A DNA stretch of 64,000 bases from an uncultured Candidatus Saccharibacteria bacterium. Lineage in GTDB: Bacteria; Patescibacteriota; Saccharimonadia; Saccharimonadales; JAGQNJ01. The notes beneath the pieces are model-generated. The model saw nothing but the letters and a program-made list of their open reading frames with translations, was not told the DNA's origin and made no database searches. The stretch covers positions 64,701 through 128,700 of the forward strand of contig CAZBGZ010000001.1 of NCBI GenBank assembly GCA_964491925.1, in the 5' to 3' direction. This document shows positions 24,884 to 64,000 of the stretch, in pieces (position 1 is the first letter of the stretch; every line of letters begins with the position of its first letter). The translations under genes were made by a program, and so were the position numbers.

Positions 24884-25783
24884 TTAATTTTGAATACTCG
24901 AAAATTTCTTCAGTAGTAGTTTTTGATCATGGATTTCTAAATTCAGATTTTTTGAAATTTCAATCTGTTTCCCAGATCTAAGTGTTTTAGCGCCTACGAC
25001 CAATTTGTTTATAGTTTTTTTATCAAAATCACTATAACTGTTTTCTCTCAGCCACTCAGCCATAACCTCAGTTGCAACCGAATGCGGAAGAGCTAATAGC
25101 TTTTTTCTGTCTACGCTATTGGCTTGTAACTGAATTGCGGACAGTTGTTTTTTGACTGCGGCATCCAGTTCCTTGTTTAACTTTTTCATTTCTGAATGAG
25201 TTTTTGTTAGTTGTTCTAGTTGGGCGGCAGAAAGTTTAGGCATCACGTTATGCCTAATCCAGTTGCGTGTATAAGCATCCGAATCGTTAGTGCTGTCTTC
25301 TCGCCATTCAAGATTGTGTTTTTTCGCATAATGAACAATTTCTAGTTTGGTTTTATCTATTAGTGGTCGACAAATTGACCCGCTACTAGATAGCGCTACA
25401 AAGCCTTTTCTGTTTGTTCCACGCAGAATATTAAAAACTGCTGTTTCCATTGCATCGTTGTGATGGTGGGCAGTCACTATTGCCTCTGCCTCATATTTTT
25501 TGCGAATTTTTTGCAAAAACTTATATCTTTGATTACGAGCCTCTTCTTCACTTACGCTGCTGCCCAAATTCCCTTCTTCGAACTCAAAAGGTAACATATA
25601 TTTTTGCGATAGAGTCGCAACAAATATTCTGTCGTCTGGTGAATCTGGTCTAATCCCATGATCAAAATGAGCCACAATCAAGTCTAGTTCTTTTTGTTTA
25701 GCCAACAAATCAAGCAAAACAACCGAATCGACCCCTCCTGACACAGCTACTACATATTTTCCTGGTTTAATATCAACAATCAC
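24884..25783 (-). CDS. tilS: tRNA(Ile)-lysidine synthase TilS
   Basis: N-terminal PP-loop SGGVDS, length about 300 aa, located next to ftsH as in many bacteria. Confidence 0.85.
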   Translation of the reverse strand: MIVDIKPGKYVVAVSGGVDSVVLLDLLAKQKELDLIVAHFDHGIRPDSPDDRIFVATLSQKYMLPFEFEEGNLGSSVSEEEARNQRYKFLQKIRKKYEAEAIVTAHHHNDAMETAVFNILRGTNRKGFVALSSSGSICRPLIDKTKLEIVHYAKKHNLEWREDSTNDSDAYTRNWIRHNVMPKLSAAQLEQLTKTHSEMKKLNKELDAAVKKQLSAIQLQANSVDRKKLLALPHSVATEVMAEWLRENSYSDFDKKTINKLVVGAKTLRSGKQIEISKNLNLEIHDQKLLLKKFSSIQN

Positions 25784-27208: not shown

Positions 27209-27285
27209 GTCGGTGTAGCTCAGTTGGTTAGAGCGCAGGACTCATAAGCCTGAGGTCGTTGGTTCAATTCCAACCACCGACACCA
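27209..27285 (+). tRNA. tRNA with CAU anticodon (elongator Met or Ile2-lysidine), CCA encoded
   Basis: Acceptor GTCGGTG/CACCGAC, D arm GCTC-AGTTGGTTA-GAGC, anticodon loop CTCATAA, T arm GTTGG-TTCAATT-CCAAC, ACCA end. Confidence 0.88.
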
Positions 27286-28451: not shown

Positions 28452-28985
28452 CTAGGTTTCAAAAATATTTGGAGAGACTCGTTCCCATTTTGGCACGCAA
28501 ACAGTCATTGCATACTCGCAAATAGTACGATTATCAGAGAACATTTCTTTTTCTGGTAATGCCTTCATCTCTTCCACCGTAAATAGTCGCCGCTTTTTTG
28601 ATTCACCGTAGGCAACATTATTTTTTGGCTCTTGTTTTGTTACAAATACAAAGCCTAGATCGGTGTGCATATGATCATTAGTTATATTGTGGGTACTATG
28701 GACAAATGGCTGTGGGTGCAGCGTCGAGCGATCTATATTTTTTAATCTCTCTTTTGGCTGCAATAGTTCTAATTGGTCAAAATCGTAGCCTGTTTCTTCA
28801 CGCAGTTCGTGTTTCATGGCCTGCCATGGTGTTTCATCAAGCTCTATATGACCACCAAACTGCATAAAAACATGTAGTTTTTTATGCCTGTGTAATAAAA
28901 TTCTTGGCTTACTATCGTCGATCCTAATAATGTAAGCGCTAACGGTATGATCATGTTGGCCTGGCTCCGTATGAATATGTGGCAT
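28452..28985 (-). CDS. NUDIX hydrolase
   Basis: Nudix box GGHIELDETPWQAMKHELREETGY. Confidence 0.8.
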   Translation of the reverse strand: MPHIHTEPGQHDHTVSAYIIRIDDSKPRILLHRHKKLHVFMQFGGHIELDETPWQAMKHELREETGYDFDQLELLQPKERLKNIDRSTLHPQPFVHSTHNITNDHMHTDLGFVFVTKQEPKNNVAYGESKKRRLFTVEEMKALPEKEMFSDNRTICEYAMTVCVPKWERVSPNIFET

Positions 28986-29311: not shown

Positions 29312-29386
29312 CGCGGGATGGAGCAGCGGCAGCTCGCGTGGCTCATAACCACGAGGTCCCAGGTTCGAGTCCTGGTCCCGCAACCA
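29312..29386 (+). tRNA. initiator tRNA-fMet (CAU), CCA encoded
   Basis: CGCGGGA...TCCCGCA acceptor with the C1xA72 mismatch typical of bacterial initiators, anticodon loop CTCATAA, T arm CCAGG-TTCGAGT-CCTGG. Confidence 0.88.
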
Positions 29387-53772: not shown

Positions 53773-53848
53773 TGGTGGGGATGGTAGGATTTGAACCTAC
53801 GACCAATCAGTTATGAGCCGACTGCTCTAACCCCTGAGCTACATCCCC
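53773..53848 (-). tRNA. tRNA with CAU anticodon (elongator Met or Ile2-lysidine), CCA encoded; anchor of the cassette array
   Basis: On the minus strand: GGGGATG-TA-GCTC-AGGGGTTA-GAGC-A-GTCGG-CTCATAA-CTGAT-TGGTC-GTAGG-TTCAAAT-CCTAC-CATCCCC-A-CCA. Confidence 0.88.
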
Positions 53849-55975: not shown

Positions 55976-56299
55976 TTAAACTCTTGGTCTATCGGTAGAC
56001 CTTTGTAAGGCAGCTCTTGTCTTAGCGAAAGCTTGTGAACCGGGGCCGGATCGTATGGGCACGAAACCAACGGATGGCCTAGCGCCTTGTTCGGCCGCAA
56101 GGTCTTCTCCATCTCGTAAATCAGCCATAGATTCACGACGCACATCCGTATCTGTGGGGGCTGGTCCATGTGGTCTTGCATCCGCAATTGCACCAATTCG
56201 TGCAGCAATCTCAGTAATGTCTACGGGTTCTGGTTGCGGTAGGAGCTCTAGTTGGCCGTCCATAATATGTATTATATCACGTTTGTGCTTAGTTGACAA
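55976..56299 (-). CDS. hypothetical protein (G+C-rich orphan ORF)
   Basis: 107-aa ORF rich in Asp, Glu, Arg, Pro and Ala, with no motif recognised. It overlaps the stop region of the prenyltransferase gene. Confidence 0.35.
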   Translation of the reverse strand: MSTKHKRDIIHIMDGQLELLPQPEPVDITEIAARIGAIADARPHGPAPTDTDVRRESMADLRDGEDLAAEQGARPSVGFVPIRSGPGSQAFAKTRAALQRSTDRPRV

Positions 56300-57110
56300 C
56301 TAGTTCTATCCAAAAAAACAATCCGGCACCCAAACCCAGGTTTATGTACGGGAACATCTTGTAAAGATTGAATATCTTTTTTTGCCGCAACAGAGATATT
56401 ATAACCATTAACCCGTATACTAACCCGGCAAAAATGCTGAAAACGCCAAGCCATTGATACGTCAAAATAGCAGAAGCAATATACGAACCGAAGCAGAAAA
56501 TCAATGTCAGCTTGCTACCTAAAACTGTAGCAATCGTAGAGATTTTGGCCTTTCTGTCAGATTCTATGTCTGGGACCGCCGAGTAAGCATGCATGGCCAT
56601 ACACCACAGAGTGGCACTAATAATTATCGCAAGTGAGGGAAATTCTCCTGTTACCAGACCGAAACTAACAAGAGCTGGGAAAATATACAGGATATTAAAA
56701 AACGAGTCCAAAAACGGCTTTGTCTTAGCTCGAATCGGAGGGCTAGAGTAAAAGATTCCAAAAAACCAGAACCCCAATAATGATAAAAAGGCTGCTAGCG
56801 GCATCAATGGCGCCAAGGCTAGTATAGGCAAATTGAGCAAGAGAATCAGTTTTGATAAGTTTTTTTGCTGTACGGGTTTTAGTAATGTTTCGTATGACTG
56901 TTTTTTGGGGTTTACCTTGTCTGTTTCATAATCAAAAATATCGTTTACGCCGTAAATTAAGAGATTTGCAGGCAGTAAAAAATACAAACCAAAAATGGTC
57001 AAGAGCCACCAATTCGAATAAATATTCGCAGATGTCAGCCCAATAATGAATGGACCGAACAGATACGGCCAGAATCTTGGTCTCGAAATTTTGAAAAATG
57101 GCACAAGCAC
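56289..57110 (-). CDS. UbiA-family prenyltransferase, lycopene elongase (LyeJ/CrtEb)-like
   Basis: 8-9 TM helices, first Asp-rich motif NDIFDYETDKVNPKK, length 273 aa. Adjacent to carotenoid genes. Confidence 0.7.
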   Translation of the reverse strand: MLVPFFKISRPRFWPYLFGPFIIGLTSANIYSNWWLLTIFGLYFLLPANLLIYGVNDIFDYETDKVNPKKQSYETLLKPVQQKNLSKLILLLNLPILALAPLMPLAAFLSLLGFWFFGIFYSSPPIRAKTKPFLDSFFNILYIFPALVSFGLVTGEFPSLAIIISATLWCMAMHAYSAVPDIESDRKAKISTIATVLGSKLTLIFCFGSYIASAILTYQWLGVFSIFAGLVYGLMVIISLLRQKKIFNLYKMFPYINLGLGAGLFFWIELVVN

Positions 57111-57125
57111 TTCATAATTGTACCA

Positions 57126-57803
57126 ATGAATTCGATAATATCGGCAGCCGCGCCTTTAGCTTCTGCAATATCAATAGTCTTGTTCGCATTGCCTAGCTAC
57201 ATCGGGGCCATTCGACAACGTGGTGTTGCTCGTGCAGTCATACTTATCGTGGCTCTGGGATTATTCGGAATCGCCTTTGAGTCAATTGCTGTAAAAACAG
57301 GCTACCCGTATGGACAGTTCGCTTACAGCGATACACTAGGTTACAAAATATTAGGGCTAACACCCTGGACAGTTGCATTTGCATACCCACCTCTTGTACT
57401 AGGTGCTTTTTGGCTTGCTAGTAAAATAACAAAAACAGGGATGCGAGTTATATTAACTGCCTTATTCGCCCTGGCGCTAGACGTCGTCCTGGACCCTGCC
57501 CTAACTCGAATGGGCATTTGGCAATGGGCAAAAGCCGGACCTTTTTACGGAGTGCCTCTAATGAACTTTGCCGGCTGGTTTGTCAGTGGGCTAATTTCCG
57601 GTTGGATTATTCACAAAATCTGGGGAAAAGAAAAATCTGTCCGTAGGTCTCTTGCCTACAGTGCTTTCGGACTCACCTGGTTTTGGGCCGGAGTAAACCT
57701 GGGCCTAAAACAATGGATACCGGGAGGAATCGGCGTTGCCATTGGGCTACTTACAATGTTTATCATGAGGATGGAGAAAAAGCGCGAACAGAAAAATGTC
57801 TAA
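57126..57803 (+). CDS. carotenoid biosynthesis membrane protein (CruF / PF04240-like)
   Basis: Polytopic protein of 225 aa. GYPYGQFAYSDTLGYKILGLTPW and PLMNFAGWF motifs fit my recollection of the Caroten_synth family. Confidence 0.6.
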   Translation: MNSIISAAAPLASAISIVLFALPSYIGAIRQRGVARAVILIVALGLFGIAFESIAVKTGYPYGQFAYSDTLGYKILGLTPWTVAFAYPPLVLGAFWLASKITKTGMRVILTALFALALDVVLDPALTRMGIWQWAKAGPFYGVPLMNFAGWFVSGLISGWIIHKIWGKEKSVRRSLAYSAFGLTWFWAGVNLGLKQWIPGGIGVAIGLLTMFIMRMEKKREQKNV

Positions 57804-59301
57804 ACCTACTGCAATAATTATAGGTGCCGGTTTTGGGGGCTTGGGTAGTGCATGCATACTGGGCAAGGCTGGGTACAAGGTTACTGTCATAGAAAAAAAC
57901 GAACAGATCGGTGGCCGCGCAGGAGTTTTTGAAACCAAGGGGTTTAGATTTGATGCTGGGCCCAGTTGGTACTTAATGCCCGATATATTTCAGCACTTTT
58001 TTGACCTTATGGGAGAAAAAGTCGAAAACCATCTAAAACTCAAAAAGCTGTCCCCGAGTTACCGAATATTTTATAAAGACTCTGACAATCATGTCGATAT
58101 ATATTCTGACCTAAAAAAAGATTTGCCGACAATAAGAAAAATTGAGCCCGGAGCTGACGAGGCACTTAAGCGATACCTAGATATCGCAGGGCAGCAGTAC
58201 GAAATAGCTAAAGCTAGTTTTTTATATAAAAACTACAATTCTATTCGCGATTTTTTAACCTGGGAGGTTGCAACAAAGGGTCGAAAGCTAAACGCACTTT
58301 CAAACATGGACAAATACGTTCGAAAATACTTCAAAACTGACGAAATGTACAAAATAATACAATATCCTTCGGTTTTTCTAGGATCTAGCCCATACAACAC
58401 CCCTGCCCTGTACAGTATGATGAACCACATAGATTTCAATATGGGGGTTTACTATCCAGACGGAGGTATCAACGAAATAGTAAAGAGCTTGGAACGAATT
58501 GCCAAGAAGTACGATGTCGTTTTTAGAAACAACTTGACCGTGAAGAAAATAATTATCAAGAACAAAAAAGCTGTTGGGGTAAAGCTAGAGAATGGAAGAG
58601 CAATATATGCAAACGTTGTTATCAGTAACGCGAATGTCTGGCACACCGAAACAAAACTACTGAGCGCTCAATACCGAACCAAGTCCACTAAATACTGGGA
58701 AAGCCGAGTTCTGGCGCCGAGTGCAGTAATAATATACTTAGGGGTCAAAGGAAGATACCCTGGCATTCAGCACCATAACTTGATATTCAGTAAAAATTGG
58801 AAAAAGAATTTCGGGCAGATTTTTGACAACCCAACCTGGCCCTCGGACCCTAGTATGTATGTTTGTGCTCCCAGCAAAACTGATGCCACAGTTGCACCAA
58901 AAGGACATGAGAACATGTTTGTTTTAGTCCCAATTGCACCTGGCTTGAAATACACAGACAAACAATTGGTGGCCTACGCTGATAAGATTCTGGAGACCAT
59001 GGAAGAAACCATGAAGCTCAAAAATTTGCGTAAAAATATTGTCTATCGGAGACAGTTTAGCGTGAAAGACTTTGCTAATCGTTATAATTCGCAGTCTGGA
59101 ACGGCTTTGGGTATGGCCCACATACTCAGACAATCTGCAATTTTCAGGCCTAACAACATTAGCAAAAAGGTATCTAACTTATACTATGTTGGTGCTGACG
59201 TTAACCCTGGGATTGGCATGCCCACGACTTTGATCAGTGCCGAGTTAATGTACAAAAGGATAATTGGCGACAATACTTCGGGACCACTTCAAAAAATATA
59301 A
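57796..59301 (+). CDS. phytoene desaturase family FAD oxidoreductase (CrtI/CrtD-like)
   Basis: N-terminal dinucleotide fold IIGAGFGGLGSACILGKAGYKVTVIEKNEQIGGRA, 501 aa, and a C-terminal motif typical of CrtI-family enzymes. There is an 8-nt overlap with the upstream gene. Confidence 0.85.
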   Translation: MSKPTAIIIGAGFGGLGSACILGKAGYKVTVIEKNEQIGGRAGVFETKGFRFDAGPSWYLMPDIFQHFFDLMGEKVENHLKLKKLSPSYRIFYKDSDNHVDIYSDLKKDLPTIRKIEPGADEALKRYLDIAGQQYEIAKASFLYKNYNSIRDFLTWEVATKGRKLNALSNMDKYVRKYFKTDEMYKIIQYPSVFLGSSPYNTPALYSMMNHIDFNMGVYYPDGGINEIVKSLERIAKKYDVVFRNNLTVKKIIIKNKKAVGVKLENGRAIYANVVISNANVWHTETKLLSAQYRTKSTKYWESRVLAPSAVIIYLGVKGRYPGIQHHNLIFSKNWKKNFGQIFDNPTWPSDPSMYVCAPSKTDATVAPKGHENMFVLVPIAPGLKYTDKQLVAYADKILETMEETMKLKNLRKNIVYRRQFSVKDFANRYNSQSGTALGMAHILRQSAIFRPNNISKKVSNLYYVGADVNPGIGMPTTLISAELMYKRIIGDNTSGPLQKI

Positions 59302-63096: not shown

Positions 63097-63598
63097 TAAC
63101 TTTGTAGTGGTTTTGGATTATTCCATCCACTACCTTTTTAGTACTAATTAGTTCAAGTTTTAATTCTATATTTTTACTATCGCTAAACAAACCAATGCCA
63201 TCACCCATTACAAAGGGATAAATACTTACTACTATTTCATCTATGCATTTTGCACGGGCAAACCTAGCATTAGTTTCACCACCACCAGATAATATAACTG
63301 AATCAAACCCATGGTCTTTAACAACTTGCAGAATTTCTTCAGGTTCGCCTGAAACAAATATAATATTCTCGTTTGTAGATTTTAGACATTTGCTTGTACA
63401 AACAAATGTTACTCTTCCCTCTTCATCAAAATCTGACTTATACTGCTCGTAAGTCGTTCGACCAACGATTGCACAGCCAGCTTCTTTAATTGCTTGTTGA
63501 TATAATGCATCGTCAGCACCACTAACCCAATCCGAATCACCATCACTTTTTGCAATAAATCCATCTAGCGTAATCGCCGGATACAAAATAACTTTCAT
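63086..63598 (-). CDS. dihydrofolate reductase-like (RibD C-terminal domain) family protein
   Basis: MKVILYPAITLDGFIA...DW N-terminus and a GGGETN segment, 170 aa. Confidence 0.7.
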   Translation of the reverse strand: MKVILYPAITLDGFIAKSDGDSDWVSGADDALYQQAIKEAGCAIVGRTTYEQYKSDFDEEGRVTFVCTSKCLKSTNENIIFVSGEPEEILQVVKDHGFDSVILSGGGETNARFARAKCIDEIVVSIYPFVMGDGIGLFSDSKNIELKLELISTKKVVDGIIQNHYKVIKD

Positions 63599-63709: not shown

Positions 63710-63985
63710 TTAATAACCGGAGTTCGTGTATGATTTAATATCTTCTTCAAGGTTATCGGATGAAAAAGCAAAATGACGGGAAATTTTTTTGCTTAACTCA
63801 GAGTTGGGATCGACGAAAGTAAAAAGCTCGACATGGCTTTTGCCTTTTTTCATCATTACTGCTTGAAAACCCCTGGATGATCCGCCGAAACGTTTCATAA
63901 CAGAATAGCCTATTTTCTCATAAAATTTTATCGATTCCTCGAGACTTTCAACTCTAAATCCAAAATGATGTAGGCCAGTAATCAT
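63710..63985 (-). CDS. VOC (glyoxalase/bleomycin-resistance) family protein
   Basis: ITGLHHFGFRVESLEESIKFYEKIGY N-terminal VOC motif. An alternative start coincides with the window edge (64000). Confidence 0.7.
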   Translation of the reverse strand: MITGLHHFGFRVESLEESIKFYEKIGYSVMKRFGGSSRGFQAVMMKKGKSHVELFTFVDPNSELSKKISRHFAFSSDNLEEDIKSYTNSGY

Positions 63986-64000
63986 TTTGTCACACTCCAT

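Follow-up and report, generated by a model that had tools for sequence, protein, structure and literature searches.

A conserved LyeJ-like, CruF-like and CrtI-type gene triad as a candidate C50 carotenoid module of Saccharimonadales

Why does a bacterium with a reduced genome keep three adjacent carotenoid genes, and where would the carotenoid on which they act come from? These questions were raised by a stretch of 64,000 nucleotides on contig CAZBGZ010000001.1 of an uncultured Candidatus Saccharibacteria bacterium (the window, at its full length), in which the genes of a UbiA prenyltransferase, a CruF-like membrane protein and a CrtI-family desaturase form a triad at 56289-59301. A first-pass annotation of the window had equated the triad with the haloarchaeal lyeJ-cruF-crtD genes, had described it as a cluster that only tailors carotenoids and had suggested that it might be a recent acquisition. 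The equivalence was supported by our analyses, and the other two proposals were not. We consider it probable that the triad represents, in Saccharimonadales, the bacterioruberin-type C50 carotenoid module and that it was inherited vertically. The triad genes have been known in Saccharibacteria since 2023 (PMC9948471), to which the window adds one more genome. What is new here is the conserved synteny and single origin of the module, the reading of its desaturase as CrtI/CrtD, the linked isopentenyl diphosphate (IPP) isomerase (IDI) and the systematic local absence of crtB in comparison with Acidobacteriota.

Family assignments of the triad genes

The UbiA gene, which is LyeJ-like and predicted to encode a lycopene elongase/1,2-hydratase, is located on the minus strand (56289-57110; 273 aa, GTG start). 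A divergent spacer of 15 bp, shared by both strands (57111-57125; read from the sequence as TTCATAATTGTACCA), separates it from the plus-strand gene of the CruF-like PF04240 membrane protein, a predicted carotenoid hydratase (57126-57803; 225 aa, ATG start). The CruF-like gene overlaps by 8 nt (57796-57803) the plus-strand gene of the CrtI-family desaturase, which is of the CrtI/CrtD bifunctional type (57796-59301; 501 aa). The three adjacent genes, their families, the 15-bp spacing and the 8-nt overlap of the first-pass annotation were all reproduced by the open reading frame (ORF) coordinates and Pfam, and the family matches are strong and lie far beyond chance. Several hydrophobic, transmembrane-like segments were present in both the UbiA and the CruF-like proteins.

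The prenyltransferase matched PF01040 (Pfam, E = 6.7e-25) and contains the NDxxDxxxD motif (N56, D57, D60 and D64) that had been noticed at first, together with a second Asp motif (D181 and D185). Both motifs were unchanged in all 20 aligned homologues, which suggests purifying selection on the catalytic Asp residues. The protein scored 243 bits on the NCBIfam model NF009516/PRK12875, above the cutoff of 205, as compared with 131 bits (cutoff 217) on the CrtEb-type model PRK13105. Assignment to menaquinone or haem O prenyltransferases, which had also been considered, was not obtained, with at most 41 bits on the quinone, haem and chlorophyll models (UbiA/MqnP/ChlG; cutoffs >180). Because NF009516 bears only the name 'prenyltransferase', we calibrated it with the plasmid cluster of Halocatena salina and with the elongase of Arthrobacter. 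Halocatena LyeJ reached 426 bits on NF009516, and the CrtEb-type elongase of Arthrobacter sp. StoSoilB13 scored 136 bits on NF009516 and 418 bits on PRK13105. The window protein shows the reverse of the Arthrobacter scores, and by these models it is of the LyeJ type and not of the CrtEb type. It is 37% identical to Halocatena LyeJ (E = 5e-54), and its predicted activity would be the addition of C5 units to lycopene with 1,2-hydration.

The CruF-like protein matched PF04240 (Caroten_synth) over 204 of the 209 profile positions, with E = 1.8e-44 and 152.6 bits against a cutoff of 25. Its scores were below the cutoffs of TIGR03460 (136.7 bits, cutoff 154.7) and CruF_Halo (NF041333; 100.1 bits, cutoff 300), on which Halocatena CruF scored 167 and 356 bits, respectively, and it gained 76 bits against a cutoff of 400 on the gamma-carotene hydroxylase CruF model. 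Identity to Halocatena CruF was 28% (E = 1e-18). With scores under the haloarchaeal equivalog cutoffs, the window protein is best described as a PF04240 relative below the equivalog level of the haloarchaeal hydratase (bisanhydrobacterioruberin hydratase), rather than as a confirmed equivalog.

The desaturase matched PF01593, PF13450 and PF01266, and its flavin adenine dinucleotide (FAD)-binding GxGxxG motif reads IIGAGFGGLG at residues 8-17. It scored 505 bits on TIGR02734 (CrtI family), above the cutoff of 238. Its top model was NF058655, 'bifunctional phytoene desaturase/3,4-desaturase CrtID', on which 612.5 bits fell narrowly under the cutoff of 640, whereas the models of CrtD only gave 220-274 bits against cutoffs of 500-580. 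For comparison, an orthologue from Acidobacteriota scored 630 bits and the Halocatena protein 749.5 bits on NF058655. The window protein is 45% identical to CrtI of the Halocatena cluster (E = 3e-152), and the CrtI-type orthologue is the sole desaturase beside the phytoene synthase (PSY) in the Acidobacteriota clusters. Genetic work in 2024 showed that the desaturase of the haloarchaeal cluster, long named CrtD, is a phytoene desaturase as well as a 3,4-desaturase, and CrtI plus CrtD activity was demonstrated only for Ha. japonica C0507 and D1086 (PMC11946383). Since the best model is CrtID and the haloarchaeal enzyme is bifunctional, the triad probably encodes phytoene desaturation and thus includes a backbone enzyme, which would leave only crtB and a geranylgeranyl diphosphate synthase missing. 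It plausibly covers all steps from phytoene to the C50 product. A cluster limited to tailoring is not what a desaturase closest to CrtID suggests.

If the triad proteins act as their characterised haloarchaeal homologues do, the CrtI/CrtD-type flavoenzyme would convert phytoene to lycopene and would later introduce the 3,4-double bonds. The LyeJ-like UbiA protein would transfer C5 units from dimethylallyl diphosphate (DMAPP) onto C-2 of each lycopene end and hydrate the 1,2-bond, and the CruF-like membrane protein would hydrate the added C5 units. The predicted product is a bacterioruberin-like hydroxylated C50 (or C45) pigment located in the cell membrane.

Synteny, phylogeny and related clusters

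A scan of species-representative genomes with the UbiA alignment gave 243 relatives, and the loci of the best 80 were examined. These 80 came from about 15 Saccharimonadales, about 58 Acidobacteriota (metagenome-assembled genomes (MAGs) of Pyrinomonadaceae, Blastocatellia and 'Chloracidobacterium'), 3 Actinomycetota and a few others. Clustering of the ORFs from the related loci placed UbiA in 85, CruF in 83 and CrtI in 81 loci, so the triad is co-located almost everywhere. The Saccharibacteria share the order crtI, cruF and UbiA gene, the first two transcribed in one direction and the third in the other, between Dus and a Mur ligase-MazG-Sua5 group. This site between Dus and the Mur ligase was constant in lineages at 50-60% protein identity, including those on contigs of 784 kb, 804 kb and 1.05 Mb. 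The Acidobacteriota loci have the order cruF, UbiA gene, crtI and PSY gene, with the UbiA gene opposite in direction to the other three. Their PSY (PF00494, 231 bits) adjoined the triad in 48 of about 58 loci, and a polyprenyl synthase adjoined it in about ten.

Neighbour-joining trees, built without bootstrap support and rooted on Halocatena as the haloarchaeal outgroup, grouped the Saccharibacteria in a single clade and the Acidobacteriota in another, for every protein of the triad. A midpoint-rooted version placed one Saccharibacteria UbiA protein (locus L026) outside its clade, and outgroup rooting resolved this placement. Mean identity within Saccharibacteria was 72% for CrtI, 55% for UbiA and 50% for CruF. 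The conserved site and gene order, together with a single clade for each protein, indicate that the module is old and vertically inherited in Saccharimonadales and exclude a recent acquisition. Horizontal transfer into this one genome from haloarchaea, Actinobacteria or Acidobacteriota would fit the compactness of the triad, the presence of related clusters in several phyla and the slightly raised guanine-plus-cytosine (GC) content of the 56-58 kb region (0.444 as compared with about 0.42 for the window). It is effectively refuted by the synteny and phylogeny, and identities of 36-56% to Acidobacteriota and 28-45% to haloarchaea are far too low for it. We therefore reject recent transfer as highly improbable.

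The bacterioruberin cluster of Haloarcula japonica, crtI/crtD (c0507)-lyeJ (c0506)-cruF (c0505), consists of the same three families in a tight cluster, and the plasmid NZ_CP096020 of Halocatena salina provided our reference copy of the haloarchaeal crtI-lyeJ-cruF-PSY cluster. Haloarchaeal LyeJ and the window UbiA protein pass the same model, NF009516, and the window desaturase is closest to a CrtI/CrtD model; the equivalence to lyeJ-cruF-crtD is borne out at the identities to Halocatena salina of 37%, 28% and 45% for the three proteins. The haloarchaeal cluster, however, is one co-directional operon with PSY next door, whereas in the window the lyeJ-like gene is divergent from cruF-crtI and PSY is absent. 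The window also differs in that it comes from a bacterium whose genome is reduced and that its CruF-like and CrtI-type proteins are below the haloarchaeal cutoffs.

The nearest homologues outside the Candidate Phyla Radiation (CPR) were found in Acidobacteriota clusters, in which a cruF::idi fusion is divergent from a lyeJ-like gene accompanied by crtI and crtB; identities to the window proteins were 47-57% for UbiA, about 56% for CrtI and about 36% for CruF. The divergent cruF/lyeJ pair is common to both groups. The Acidobacteriota clusters contain PSY and frequently a polyprenyl synthase, and their IDI is part of the CruF protein, whereas Saccharibacteria have a separate IDI, no PSY at the locus and a crtI relocated behind cruF. 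Actinobacteria are known hosts of Saccharibacteria, and their C50 clusters (crtE-crtB-crtI-crtEb with C50 cyclases; also the bacterioruberin genes of Arthrobacter) combine a UbiA-type lycopene elongase with CrtI, as is predicted for the window. At the Arthrobacter locus PSY is adjacent and a CruF match was not obtained, and the elongase scores differ from those of the window UbiA protein as described above.

The genes lyeJ, crtD and cruF were reported in 2023 from Lake Baikal Candidatus Saccharibacteria and 'Baikalibacteria' and were read as bacterioruberin synthesis, possibly for membrane adaptation (PMC9948471). The genes of the Lake Baikal bins were dispersed or on separate reads, in contrast to the compact triad at a conserved locus in the window, and that report did not deal with crtB, with a CrtI role of the desaturase, with a linked IDI or with the conservation of synteny.

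Precursor supply

LyeJ uses DMAPP as its C5 donor, and it therefore makes biochemical sense that an IPP isomerase is fused or linked to the elongase cluster. The CruF proteins of Acidobacteriota, at about 430 aa, end in a type-1 IPP isomerase domain at the C-terminus (NF002995, 211 bits, cutoff 127). This fusion was observed at L082:8667-9956 and at about 45 other Acidobacteriota loci (among L019-L090), where a LyeJ-like gene is divergent from the fusion gene and has crtI, crtB and, in many cases, a polyprenyl synthase gene behind it; no C50-type cluster of Acidobacteriota with a CruF-IDI fusion was found in the literature searched. The IDI of Saccharibacteria stands alone (204-231 bits, cutoff 127) within 0-8 kb of the triad. 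It is located directly beside crtI in two loci (L015 and L017) and 6.7-8 kb away, past Mur ligase-MazG-Sua5, in five (L008, L034, L038, L005 and L094). L005 and L094 match the window collinearly as far as 63165, at 85-86% nucleotide identity, and in both the IDI gene is 6.7-6.9 kb past crtI. Because the window ends 4.7 kb after crtI, short of that position, it is likely that an IDI gene is located just beyond its end in the source genome, and DMAPP would probably be supplied by this type-1 isomerase, as linked in close relatives. The first-pass annotation had found no isoprenoid-precursor genes, which holds for the window but not for the same locus in relatives. A NUDIX gene within the window (28452-28985) was rejected as an IDI, since it only weakly matched a MutT-like model. 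On metagenome contigs the Saccharibacteria-type IDI often adjoins a polyprenyl synthase (L102:10001-11598, L142, L161 and L105), which occurred five times in 607 kb of IDI-centred contigs, and at L110:886-2499 the two appeared to be fused in one open frame of 538 aa.

Several points weigh against the assignment of the triad to C50 synthesis. The assignment is supported by homology, and the characterised enzymes all come from outside this bacterial clade. The CruF-like and CrtI-type proteins score under the haloarchaeal equivalog cutoffs, so their substrate and product may differ, and the product may be a C45 or a hydroxylated C40 carotenoid. Some relatives hold a partial locus at the same syntenic site: L003, on the 784-kb contig, retains CruF only (two unannotated L003 genes were not UbiA relatives), and L010, L018 and L033 retain UbiA and CrtI without CruF. 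The low scores and the missing partners would also fit a role other than C50 synthesis, in which, for example, the UbiA protein prenylates a quinone or lipid and the CruF-like and CrtI-type proteins make a hydroxylated C40 carotenoid, as in Deinococcus or cyanobacteria. Bacterial CruF homologues are known as C-1',2' hydratases, for which the model NF045693 exists. However, the UbiA protein passes the LyeJ-type model and stays far under the cutoffs of the quinone, haem and chlorophyll models, the match to gamma-carotene hydroxylase CruF is only 76 bits, and the triad is tightly linked in more than 80 loci, with IDI, the supplier of DMAPP, fused or linked. Such a role appears quite unlikely to us.

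The other points against the C50 module concern phytoene, which would have to be supplied from outside the locus. Pfam scans of 61 window ORFs, which included the triad and every other ORF longer than about 150 aa, detected neither PF00494 nor PF00348. Sequences of PSY, polyprenyl synthase and IDI used as tblastn queries gave no match in the window, nor did six-frame hidden Markov model (HMM) searches for the same three enzymes, in agreement with the earlier observation that crtE and crtB are absent from it. A PSY hidden among its unannotated ORFs was ruled out by Pfam at E <= 1, by tblastn and by the six-frame HMM searches with filters off. The PSY HMM, again with filters off, had no match in the window plus 393 kb of Saccharibacteria triad loci, and another 607 kb of metagenome contigs around the Saccharibacteria-type IDI likewise yielded none; these searches covered about 20 kb per genome (2-3%), about 1 Mb in all. 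Unannotated genes of 270-300 aa beside the UbiA gene in other Saccharibacteria were rejected as cryptic PSY (HHalign probability <1%). The contrast with Acidobacteriota, in which PSY adjoins most of the triad loci, is real over this 2-3% of each genome. Furthermore, Saccharimonadia have been reported to have no C5 isoprenoid pathway and only C10-C20 prenyl chain synthesis (PMC9166423).

One explanation of these absences is that the genome lacks both crtB and the C5 pathway, and that the epibiont converts phytoene or lycopene of an actinobacterial host, taken up with membrane lipids, to a C50 carotenoid. It would be consistent with the lack of any PSY match in the roughly 1 Mb of Saccharibacteria sequence that surrounds the triad and IDI genes while the Acidobacteriota sisters have PSY adjacent, with the exclusion of the unannotated flanking genes as cryptic PSY and with the reported restriction of Saccharimonadia to C10-C20 chain synthesis, with no lipid synthesis. 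There is also a precedent, as rhodopsin-bearing Saccharibacteria appear to depend on host-made retinal (bioRxiv 10.1101/2022.02.13.480300). On the other hand, crtB could be unlinked and so escape a sample of about 20 kb per genome, and hosts contain phytoene and lycopene only as intermediates of low abundance. DMAPP would still be required by the elongase, and the linkage of IDI and of polyprenyl synthases points to an isoprenoid diphosphate metabolism of the bacterium's own. In addition, one Saccharimonas MAG was annotated with crtB and crtE (PMC11484240), for which contamination is possible. On balance we regard remodelling of a host precursor as unlikely, though serious enough to be weighed. 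Some bacteria have their carotenoid genes dispersed over the genome, and we think it somewhat probable that phytoene comes from a crtB elsewhere in the genome, which is more likely than uptake from the host, itself a minority possibility. We would propose only tentatively, and as rather doubtful, that triad-bearing Saccharimonadales are devoid of PSY genome-wide and finish a host carotenoid precursor to a C50 pigment with their own IDI-derived DMAPP. If true, the pigment pathway would be split between host and epibiont.

Promoters, neighbouring genes and significance

The 15-bp spacer contains overlapping -10-like boxes for both directions. A CATAAT box on the plus strand is located 7 nt before the ATG of the CruF-like gene, and the promoter scan paired it as TTGAAA-16-CATAAT with a -35 box within the UbiA gene; the minus strand reads an extended -10, TGgTACAAT, 6 nt before the GTG of the UbiA gene. 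The spacer core ATAATTGTA was invariant in relatives whose UbiA proteins were only 57-62% identical. The promoters, which the first-pass annotation had taken to be embedded in coding sequence, need not lie deep within it, since the -10-like boxes are in the spacer itself, at positions that would suit leaderless transcripts. Across the window, 23 of 61 genes (38%; background 10%) have a TAnnnT box whose end lies 5-9 nt ahead of the start codon, and only 11 of the 61 (18%; background 10%) have a Shine-Dalgarno-like motif. Leaderless transcription therefore seems to be normal in the source organism, and if so, nothing special has to be invoked for divergent genes set so close together. The -10 boxes may act as back-to-back promoters from which the two units, the lyeJ-like gene and cruF-crtI, would start as leaderless mRNAs. 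At two other loci (L028 and L083) a gene resembling family 2 glycosyltransferases (GT2), recognised by eye only and with a translated start that reads ...ISVIIPTLNEEKHIGTLLDCVKSQTF..., was located between cruF and the lyeJ-like gene; it may encode a carotenoid glycosyltransferase.

A small GC-rich ORF, whose function and membership in the cluster are uncertain, is located directly 3' of the UbiA gene on the minus strand (55976-56263; 95 aa from the ATG at 56263). Its GC content is 53%, as compared with 42% for the window. Only frame-preserving indels were observed in it across four lineages, which also keep an extended -10, TGATATAAT, 7 nt upstream, and it is annotated as a gene on related contigs. 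It is 64% identical to its counterpart in L005, whose neighbouring genes are 92-95% identical to those of the window, which indicates fast evolution. The ORF had no Pfam match, and an Rfam scan of the GC-rich stretch gave nothing there, the window yielding only tRNAs.

The 58 further ORFs scanned with Pfam represent a reduced bacterial set, including RuvABC, ComEC, a sortase, a lamin-tail protein, the DnaK operon, MurJ, FtsH, TilS and Mur ligases. The named homologues of the window proteins belonged to Saccharibacteria or Patescibacteria, and the closest named genome was an uncultured Candidatus Saccharibacteria MAG (L011), whose UbiA protein is 92% identical and whose genes are collinear with those of the window, which confirms the initial guess of a CPR-type genome. 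Three tRNA genes with the CAT anticodon are present in the 64 kb (27209-27285, 29312-29386 and 53773-53848), accompanied by the TilS gene (24884-25783), and the three tRNAs probably correspond to the initiator, the elongator and the lysidine-modified Ile tRNA. Nucleotide homology to L005 and L094 (85-86% over 7-9 kb) breaks off at 63165 inside a RibD_C gene, and a partial gene at 63710-64000 was not found in these two loci, indicating a local difference in downstream gene content.

The missing PSY turns the locus into a sharp question, namely whether the carotenoid pathway of Saccharimonadales is an ordinary scattered one or is divided between host and symbiont. The significance of the triad is modest unless complete genomes prove to be without crtB. 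An ancient syntenic module that is kept in genomes shedding most of their biosynthesis nevertheless implies that the pigment must matter to Saccharimonadales, in which it may serve, for example, in membrane rigidity, cold adaptation or protection from oxidation and light.

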